Shown here: positions 6,001-9,000 of the stretch, piece after piece
Numbering within the stretch: the first letter of the stretch is position 1
How the letters are laid out: each line of letters begins with the position of its first letter
Source of the DNA: a virus
Lineage: Duplodnaviria > Heunggongvirae > Uroviricota > Caudoviricetes
Virus record (IMG/VR): IMGVR_UViG_2740892235_000011
Length of the DNA: 11,287 bases
Direction: 5' to 3' (one strand)
Position numbers: made by a program

Positions 6001-9000
6001 GTCACCCTGACGTTTAATGTGTCGTCTACCGGCGCGAACAACTGGACACCGACGACGTACATCAGTGATTTACTGGTTGTGGTGATGAAAAAATCCACGG
6101 CGGGAATCAGTATCAGCTGACGGTTTATTAACCCGGACGGGCACCCGAAGTGGTGCCTTTTTTATTGACTGAAAACAAAGAGGTAATCATGCGGTATTTA
6201 TACGGAGCCATTTTATTTTTTACCACCCTGCCGGCAGTAATGACTTTTCCTGCACAGGCTGCAGGCGGACACGGTGCATTTTCCGTGGGATATGCTCAGG
6301 TTCACCCGGGCGGCGTGCCGGTATTGTCCGGTACCGGTGCCCGTACAGGTGATTTAAAAGGGATCAACGTGAAATACCGTTATGAATTCACAGACCATCT
6401 GGGCGGCATAGCCTCGCTGAGTTACGCCTCTGCGAAAAAGAGCAGAACCACGATGACCGGGGATAAGGCATTTCATTATGAAAGTCTGCGTGGCCGTTAT
6501 GTGAGCCTGATGGCGGGGCCGGTCTGGCAGGTCAGTGAGCAGCTCAGCCTTTATGGCATGGCCGGGATGGCGCACACCCGCTGGTCTGACAGTGTTCAGG
6601 ATTACCGGCGTGATGAAGTGACACCGGGGGATGTCAGGGTGACCACCACTGCCAGTGATGGTCATTCTGCACGTCATCTGACGCTGGCATGGGGGGCTGG
6701 ACTTCAGTTTAATCCGGCGGATACGGTGGCGGTTGACCTTGCGTACGAAGTGGCCGGTCATGGTGACTGGCGAACGGATGCGTTTATTGTTGGGATTGGA
6801 TACCGTTTCTGACGGCAGATACAGCTTTATCTTCTGTAAATATTGGTATAATGAGCATGTTCATCCAGCTTATGGGTGAGCTGCGTCTGAGGAAACGTAA
6901 AGTTACACTGTCCTGAAGCCCGTGGCATTACTGCTGCGGGCTTTTTTATTGGTGGAAAGGTATGACGGTTAAAATTTCTGGTGTGCTGAAGGACGGGGCC
7001 GGTAAGCCGGTACCGGGATGCACGATAGAGCTGAAAGCGCGACGCACAACGGAGACGGTNNNNNNNNNNATCCCGCACCAGTAATGACATCTGGACAGAG
7101 TGCTTCCTGCATGTTGATCAGAACGGACGCCGGATTTATTCAGGCAGGTCAGTGGAAGAGCCGGGAATTTTCAGCGGGATCATCGATATGCCAGCTGGCG
7201 GTGGTCATATCACCCTGAGTTTTACCGTGAGCTCACGGCGTCAGAATAACAGTTGGGGCAGTTCACGAATCAGTAACCTTCAGGCGATAGTGGTGAAGAA
7301 AAACAGCGCGGGGATCAGCATCCGCTGAACATCGCGCCCCGGGATTGCCGGAAGGAGACAAAAACCGTACAGTATGCGCGGGTGCCTTTGGCTGATGGCC
7401 GGAGGGAACACCTGAAGGCCGGATGTGAAAAGGCCCCGGACAAAACATTCATGTTTAACCCGAGGCCTGACCATTCATCCTAAGCAAGTGAAAGGTTAGC
7501 GCCTCTCCGTAAAAGGAGCAAGCGTTATGTCGCAAAAACCGTTAAAAACCACCGTGATTTGTATCACGGTAGTGCTCATTATCTGGATCACCCACACTTC
7601 ACTGTGCGAGTTCCGGTTCCGGATAGCGGGCGCGGAGATTGCGGCGTTCTTACAGTGTAAGCGGTAAGAAACCGTGGCGGGGGAGTGTACCTTCCCCGCC
7701 GACCGGTTGCTGAGGGTGATCAGCCGGATGGCACCTTTTTAACATCAATAAATCACAAATTTTACCGCAGGCCGGGAAACCGGTCCTGCGGTTTTTTTAT
7801 GGAGGAAATCCATGGCAGTCAGAATATCGGGTGTGCTGAAGGACGGGGCCGGTAAGCCGGTACCGGGATGCACGATAGAGCTGAAAGCGCGACGCACAAC
7901 GGAGACGGTGATTGTCACCACGGTGGCGTATGGTCAGCCGGGGGAAACCGGCAGTTACAGTATGGATGTTGANNNNNNNNNNTTGAAAGACGGGGCCGGT
8001 AAGCCGGTACCGGGATGCACGATAGAGCTGAAAGCGCGCCGCACAACGGAGACGGTGATTGTCACCACGGTGGCGTATGGTCAGCCGGGGGAAACCGGCA
8101 GTTACAGTATGGATGTTGAGCCGGGGTTGTACCGGGTGACGCTGAACACGGAAGGGTACGCGCCGTCATATGTGGGTGACATTCTGGTGAAGGCGGAGTC
8201 TGCACCGGGAACGCTGAATAAATTTCTGATGGACCTGGAGGACGCACAGTATTACCCGAAAGCCCTTGCAGAGCTGGAAGCGGTGGCCGCGGAAATCCTG
8301 AAACGTGCGGAAGCGTCAGCGGCGAGTGCAGAGGAAGCGAAGAAACGGGCAGAGAATGCGCGGGGACCGAAGGGGGATAAGGGAGACACCGGGCCACAGG
8401 GTATTCCCGGGCCAAAAGGCGATACCGGCGANNNNNNNNNNGGCGGCGAGTGCAGAGGAAGCGAAGAAACGGGCTGAGAATGCGCGGGGACCGAAGGGGG
8501 ATAAGGGAGACACCGGGCCACAGGGTATTCCCGGGCCAAAAGGCGATACCGGCGAGCGTGGGCCAAAGGGTGAGCGTGGTGAGGCAGGCCCACAGGGGGT
8601 ACAGGGGCCACGGGGTGAAACCGGACCCGTGGGACCGCAAGGAGAGGCGGGTATTCAGGGGCCTGCTGGTCCTGCGGGCCCGCGAGGTGAAACCGGAGCC
8701 AGAGGCGAAAAAGGAGAGCCGGGAGATCCCGGAGGACCTCCGGGACCAAAAGGTGACACTGGCCCCAGAGGGGAGCCGGGGCCTCAGGGCCCGGCAGGTC
8801 CACAGGGTATACCTGGACCTCCGGGGCCAACAGGTAGCGTCGGTCCTAAGGGGGAAAAAGGCGAGCCTGGTGATCGNNNNNNNNNNGAGGGGACCTGCCG
8901 GAGAGAGAGGGCCGCAAGGATTGCAGGGTGTGGCAGGGGAGAGAGGCGATACAGGTCCGGCTGGTCCACAGGGTATACCTGGACCTCCGGGGCCAACAGG

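Follow-up and report, generated by a model that had tools for sequence, protein, structure and literature searches.

The segment at positions 7070–7328 is, with high probability, a true 3′ gene end, that of an intact gpJ in a lambda-like prophage of the 1720a-02 lineage, and continues the fragment at 4367–5482. The positions are those of the window, i.e., the whole stretch of 11,287 bases that was analysed. The feature is both real and intact. Public genomes already carry annotations of it, and it is hence already known. An earlier note on this DNA had described it as a third J C-terminal allele. Just two J ends are present in the window, and the "third allele" reading stems from treating a stack of reference-ordered contigs as a continuous sequence.

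The J 3′ end

The segment 7070–7328 (plus strand) starts with the final base of a split codon for Glu, which is followed by 85 codons and a stop codon. Its product is the distal part (~60%) of the Ig-like receptor-binding domain of gpJ, the central tail fibre (tip attachment) protein. The assignment is based on the translation, a Pfam match, and the gpJ annotation in closed genomes. Translation of 7071–7328 gives exactly the peptide quoted in the earlier note, with the stop codon at its end. The 85 amino acids match the Pfam profile PF12421 (Ig_GpJ_C) with a score of 86.6 bits (E value of 2e-24; cut-off, 26.2 bits) at profile positions 53–134 of 135, indicating that 7071–7328 is not a chance ORF. 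The nucleotide identity between the J end and the annotated gpJ genes in closed E. coli genomes is 99.6–100%. The profile match and the annotation together bear out the proposal that the segment is a genuine gpJ C-terminal (receptor-binding) variant.

Other properties ascribed to the segment also hold. The divergence from the other J end in the window (5940–6120) is strong, since 35 of the 81 residues (43%) are identical over the last 86 alignment columns. The motifs DMPAG-G and KK--AGISI, which had been pointed out as conserved, are found in both J ends of the window and in lambda J as well. The linkage to a hok-like locus is physical: one fragment free of N (7070–7972) holds the J end, the Hok/Gef ORF, and the start of stf, and closed genomes agree with this arrangement.

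Construction of the window

The window contains 20 runs of exactly ten N, which divide it into 21 fragments of 65–1567 bases each. The runs start at positions 171, 387, 1068, 1582, 2288, 3000, 3364, 3641, 3788, 4233, 4357, 5483, 7060, 7973, 8432, 8877, 9319, 9652, 9727, and 10284. We mapped the fragments onto the closed E. coli chromosome NZ_CP027462 (locus L001) and onto phage 1720a-02 (locus L002). All of them map to the lambda-like tail region, comprising the end of gene I, J, hok or lom, stf, tfa, and dinI. The same reference interval is covered by many fragments with slightly different sequences, the overlapping ones differing by 1–12 bases. Most of J is covered, except for the reference interval 7990–8094. 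The fragments are ordered by their end coordinates in the reference, not by their start coordinates, and this is the pattern expected of draft contigs ordered against a reference of the opposite orientation, with fixed spacers added.

The source record would accordingly be a short-read draft, in which the tail-gene contigs of at least three similar prophages would have been ordered against a reference and joined by spacers of ten N. In such a stack of contigs, adjacency across a spacer does not mean physical linkage. The tandem duplications and "alleles" seen along the window are artefacts of contig ordering. Linkage must therefore not be inferred across the spacers, and allele counts taken along the window come out too high.

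Several features in other parts of the window should be noted. In the fragment 397–1067, the part between I and J (397–579, compared with L001 5371–5572) is 98.8% identical to phage 1720a-02 but only 92.5% identical, with gaps, to the dusA prophage of NZ_CP027462, which points to mosaicism of these prophages just upstream of J. Long Gly-X-Y repeats of the collagen-like kind are encoded by the stf fragments at 8300–9240; several contig versions of them, with slight differences, are present. At the right end of the window lie a DUF4376 tail-fibre-assembly-like gene and a DinI-like gene (9880–10768 and 11039–11287 (−)). The last fragment is 100% identical to a prophage integrated at dusA, indicating that at least one contributing prophage sits at this site.

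Relation between the fragments 4367–5482 and 7070–7972

A six-frame motif search of the whole window gives two J C-terminal ends only, with the motifs at 5977/6088 and at 7185/7296. The upstream part of the gene ending at 7328 is found in the fragment 4367–5482 (plus strand), a piece of J that runs off its 3′ end at ...YVGSKQ. This fragment takes in the end of the second Ig/FNIII domain and an additional segment resembling a coiled coil, then the beta-prism fibre and about the first 40% of the receptor-binding domain. It maps to L001 7886–9000, while 7070–7972 maps to L001 9001–9903, so that the two pieces abut base to base at 9000/9001. The sequence across the 5482/7070 join reads ...TCAAAACAGGA on the upstream side and ATCCCGCACC... 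on the downstream side. The codon split by the join (GA/A) gives Glu, and the joined frame runs for 457 codons to the stop. The PF12421 domain, ~60% of which is held by the single fragment, becomes complete and uninterrupted only after 4367–5482 is joined with 7070–7328.

The joined DNA is present as a single uninterrupted piece in 100 closed genomes, with a best identity of 99.4% and in none of them with 100%. The joined protein is identical at 456 of 457 residues to the intact J of the potB-adjacent prophage in strain 2012C-4502 (locus L004), and at 452 of 457 residues to J of the dusA prophage. The exact abutment and the kept frame in closed genomes indicate that 4367–5482 and 7070–7972 are one gene. 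As for the source strain, we infer the adjacency of the two pieces from these closed relatives.

The number of J genes in the source should be considered here, since three versions each of the first 170 bases of J and of the reference interval 7556–7689 are present in the window, which indicates that the source genome holds at least three similar J genes. The fragment 7070–7972 could then belong to a separate third J gene, the upstream part of which is not 4367–5482. Such a set of genes has parallels, as many closed genomes of E. coli that produce Shiga toxin (STEC) have a pair of J-hok-stf prophages, one at dusA and the other at potB, along with one of the J-lom-stf kind. The two fragments are also unequally distant from the dusA-prophage reference, with 20 mismatches in 4367–5482 (98.3% identity) and one in 7070–7972 (99.9%). 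This difference suggests that the two pieces may have come from separate J-hok prophages within the source genome, and the 3′ piece 7070–7972 is possibly a collapsed repeat. However, the C-terminal sequence types in the window are still only two, and sequence of the 4367–5482 type precedes the 3′ end without interruption in 100 of the 100 closed genomes that have it. The exact abutment with a preserved frame would moreover need a coincidence if the fragments came from separate genes. We thus consider a separate third gene improbable, and take 7070–7328 as the end of the gene that begins upstream of 4367–5482.

The J 3′ end of another prophage

The fragment lying between these two pieces, 5493–7059 (plus strand), contains the 3′ end of another J gene (J′, of an A8/OmpC-like type), a lom gene (Ail/Lom), and the start of stf′, as assigned with PF12421 and PF06316. 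Strain RM10466 has a locus at 1.578 Mb that matches it with 100% identity, and the J-hok locus of this strain is found at 1.357 Mb. These separate loci indicate that 5493–7059 belongs to a different prophage and not to the J gene of 4367–5482 and 7070–7328. The ordering step would have put this J′-lom-stf′ contig between the two halves of the J gene of the J-hok prophage.

The allele at 5494–6120 is 76% identical to A8 gpJ (PDB 9wca) in the last 130 amino acids, with a score of 352 bits, and its product is probably OmpC-binding. Each of the two J ends in the window stands for a discrete receptor-binding type of its own, A8-like in one case and, at 7070–7328, of the 1720a-02 type.

Integrity of the J gene

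The fragment 7070–7972 begins at a contig break inside the gene, so that 85 codons are visible, and the whole window is an artificial concatenation. A degraded pseudogene copy of J, or an assembly chimera of the J end and the hok locus, might be suspected for these reasons, and the earlier note had named both as readings that would overturn its own. Neither agrees with the alignments. The 903-base fragment aligns as one ungapped piece over 100% of its length, at 99.9% identity, to seven or more independent closed chromosomes, and its identity to the phage 1720a-02 genome is 97.6%. J is intact in the closed genomes (3687 bases, 1228 amino acids) and carries no pseudogene flag. All J-derived fragments of the window are open in the J frame and contain no stops or frameshifts. 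In addition, phage 1720a-02, which bears the same J end, makes infectious particles, indicating that this J works in a real virion. The chance that the segment is a remnant or a chimera is practically negligible; both readings are ruled out by the one-piece alignments, the intact J, and the open frames, and are effectively refuted. The long reads across J-hok-stf that had been proposed as a check are not needed, because the arrangement is already visible in closed genomes.

The hok unit and its relation to the J end

A gene for a small membrane toxin of the Hok/Gef family (46 amino acids) is located at 7527–7667 (plus strand). It matches PF01848 with 42.2 bits (cut-off, 22) and is annotated as WP_000078855.1 in closed genomes. 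The gene sits in the gap between J and stf, where lambda has lom. The region 7380–7538 (plus strand) would correspond to the conserved hok mRNA leader, complementary to the Sok antisense RNA, i.e., the regulatory region of a type I toxin-antitoxin system. The Rfam model RF01794 ("sok") matches here over its full length with 51.1 bits (E value of 5.2e-10). The score is below the gathering score of 59 and the match is on the hok-sense strand; it would therefore mark the conserved leader and does not prove an antisense gene. At the mok position, an open frame that overlaps hok extends from about 7487 to 7660, and it has no ATG, GTG, or TTG upstream of the hok ATG. A simple scan gave no sigma-70-like promoter in the hok region. 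Judging from these elements, the regulatory layout of the hok locus (7380–7660) may not be fully conventional.

A terminator-like hairpin with a T-run at 7773–7798 (plus strand), picked up by a consensus scan, may close the hok unit just before stf; one such site was obtained and 1.0 is expected by chance, so that the hairpin is weak evidence alone. The 5′ end of stf follows at 7812–7972 (plus strand) and runs off the contig. Its first 53 codons encode a prophage tail fibre N-terminal domain (PF08400, 71.9 bits), and closed genomes annotate the gene product as a "prophage tail fiber N-terminal domain-containing protein".

The J end and hok might form a functional pair, for instance an exclusion or stabilisation module co-selected with the receptor-binding type. 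The 3′ end of the receptor-binding domain and the complete fragment with the J end, hok, and the stf start are each found in 101 genomes, and the J-hok-stf arrangement is retained in two different prophage types, which speaks for such a pair. However, the hok spacer is near-complete in 119 genomes, more than the 101 with the J end of the 1720a-02 type. In CFE299 (locus L005, 1015–4829), the same hok module lies behind a J end of the other type, which is 83% identical to the 5940–6120 allele and 49% identical to 7070–7328. In an ST131 genome (locus L006, 4232–4823), a diverged copy of hok with ~80% DNA identity adjoins ogr in a P2-like prophage. In the window itself, the gap between J and stf contains lom in one prophage, while another has hok there. 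The occurrence of hok behind another J type and in a P2-like prophage indicates that hok and the J end reassort. Functional pairing is thus very improbable, and nothing suggests it. The hok gene is a mobile cargo unit common to unrelated prophage types and is not exclusive to the J end of the 1720a-02 type. As a type I toxin-antitoxin, hok/gef would be independent cargo (a moron) that recombines independently of the J end. The literature search gave no specific paper describing hok as a cargo gene in the J-stf gap.

Prophage context and distribution

The gene order in closed genomes is tape measure (TMP)-M-L-K-I-J (1228 amino acids)-hok-stf-tfa. In one prophage type, tfa is followed by dinI and int, adjoining dusA, and in another by ykgJ and potB. 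As annotated in L001, L002, and L004, J follows K and I and precedes the side tail fibre genes, and closed chromosomes annotate the fragment 7070–7972 as gpJ, Hok/Gef, and tail fibre in this order. Prophages of the 1720a-02 lineage integrate at dusA and next to potB in LEE-negative STEC.

The 259-base J end occurs at 181 places in 101 of the 5426 closed E. coli genomes, often twice per genome, with 93–100% identity. The carrier genomes listed are mostly STEC isolates from humans, cattle, and food. Among the 50,697 phage records, this J end is carried by 1720a-02 alone, the 242 other matching phages being at most 49% identical. On sequence grounds, the receptor-binding type of 7070–7328 is a discrete, moderately rare putative specificity type, present in ~2% of closed E. 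coli genomes.

The same allele is found in gpJ of the Stx2d phage 1720a-02 (KF030445, AGR48337.1), with 99.3% identity in the C-terminal 140 amino acids, and in the RefSeq gpJ proteins WP_033802778.1 and WP_106905023.1 of STEC prophages at dusA and potB, which share the J-hok-stf-tfa order. The DNA identity to the gpJ copies of 1720a-02 and of the dusA and potB prophages is 97.6–100%. The differences are a few SNPs, and only one amino acid change (E versus A or T) is observed within the 85 residues. Phage 1720a-02 has been isolated; it is a transmissible Stx2d phage with its integration site in dusA, and Citrobacter rodentium as well as several E. coli strains are lysogenised by it (PMC6328086; bioRxiv 10.1101/2025.01.01.630987).

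Domain architecture of J and its predicted function

The full-length J was analysed with the closed-genome gene, which is 99.9% identical to the fragment. Six Pfam domains (PF24801, PF13550, PF24421, PF24489, PF09327, and PF12421) are found, comprising FNIII-A, Phage-tail_3, two Ig domains, Phage_Tail_Tip, and Ig_GpJ_C, i.e., the complete architecture of lambda gpJ. The full-length protein scores 127.9 bits against PF12421. It also aligns end to end with the structures of lambda gpJ (8iyk and 8xcj), covering residues 1–835 and 937–1227 in the case of 8iyk. The ~100 extra residues relative to lambda gpJ (J residues ~835–937; window positions 4560–4900) are rich in Gln and Glu and look like a coiled coil. 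This segment is an insertion that separates the fibre from the second Ig domain, at the place of the alpha-helical shaft in lambda.

The lambda receptor-binding domain is a trimeric Ig-like domain, and its four bottom loops insert into the LamB trimer; binding to LamB spreads the receptor-binding domains apart, and the signal passes up the fibre so that the tail tip opens (PMC11101478). By homology to lambda gpJ, 7070–7328 would encode the distal part of the corresponding receptor-binding domain. The predicted fold is settled by the homology to solved structures, with 39–47% identity and no large gaps. Three copies of the C-terminal Ig-like domain would form the tip of the central tail fibre, the variable bottom loops of which would bind an outer-membrane protein, most likely a trimeric porin, and the binding would trigger tail-tip opening and DNA ejection. 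The motifs DMPAG-G and KK--AGISI, which lambda, phage 21, and A8 also have, are probably part of the domain's structural core and not of the loops that contact the receptor. The divergent positions would define a discrete receptor specificity type. Nothing in the sequence of the J end points to a new mechanism.

The identity of the 7070–7328 type to every characterised receptor-binding domain is below 50%. No receptor for J of the 1720a-02 type was found in the literature searched, and a search of the papers on 1720a-02 (PMC6328086; bioRxiv 10.1101/2025.01.01.630987) gave no description of the receptor, the tail, or hok. We lean toward a trimeric porin of the LamB/OmpC/OmpF kind as the receptor. 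That the domain recognises a receptor other than LamB, OmpC, or OmpF, common to E. coli and Citrobacter rodentium, is rather doubtful; if true, it would make this J end a distinct, uncharacterised host-range determinant of Stx2d phages.

As a discovery the feature carries little weight, since about a hundred closed E. coli genomes, and a well-studied Stx2d phage as well, already have annotations for the gene, for hok next to it, and for the way the two are arranged. The receptor of the 1720a-02-type J is an ordinary experimental question and no surprise. Since 1720a-02 is the model Stx phage of the Citrobacter rodentium mouse model, naming the receptor of its J would be a modest but concrete gain in understanding host range.

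Comparison with known systems

The hok locus in the window has the Hok/Gef toxin family in common with hok/sok of plasmid R1 and with the chromosomal hok loci of E. coli, and its putative leader matches the sok model. Unlike these, it is cargo between J and stf of a prophage, its sok match is sub-threshold, and it has no canonical mok start.

Among solved structures, the receptor-binding domain of lambda gpJ, which binds LamB (PDB 8XCJ, 8XCK, and 8IYK), shares the family, the architecture, and the position in the tail operon. The C-terminal 205 amino acids align throughout with small gaps only, and the motifs DMPAG-G and KK--GIS are shared. The identity is 38–41% over the last 86–135 residues (39% over the last 130). 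Lambda gpJ is 1132 amino acids long, in contrast to 1228 here, and lom lies downstream of it, whereas hok does so in the J-hok prophage.

A8 gpJ (PDB 9WCA and 9WCB) has the same domain family. Its score to the 7070–7328 type, 224.7 bits, is equal to that of lambda, and the identity in the last 130 amino acids is 47%. A8 gpJ is a natural J C-terminus from an E. coli prophage that uses OmpC (Brodel et al. 2024, PMC11338833), and 1A2 gpJ is a second OmpC-binding variant (PMC11338833).

Besides 1720a-02, J of phage 21 (48.3% identity) is among the nearest deposited phage relatives, phage 3W being slightly closer (49.0%). The native receptor of phage 21 J is LamB, and one mutation adds OmpC (PMC11336670); we had entertained phage 21 as a native OmpC user and dropped this idea on the basis of that paper. 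More than half of the residues differ between phage 21 J and the J end at 7070–7328, so that receptor use is not transferable from one to the other.
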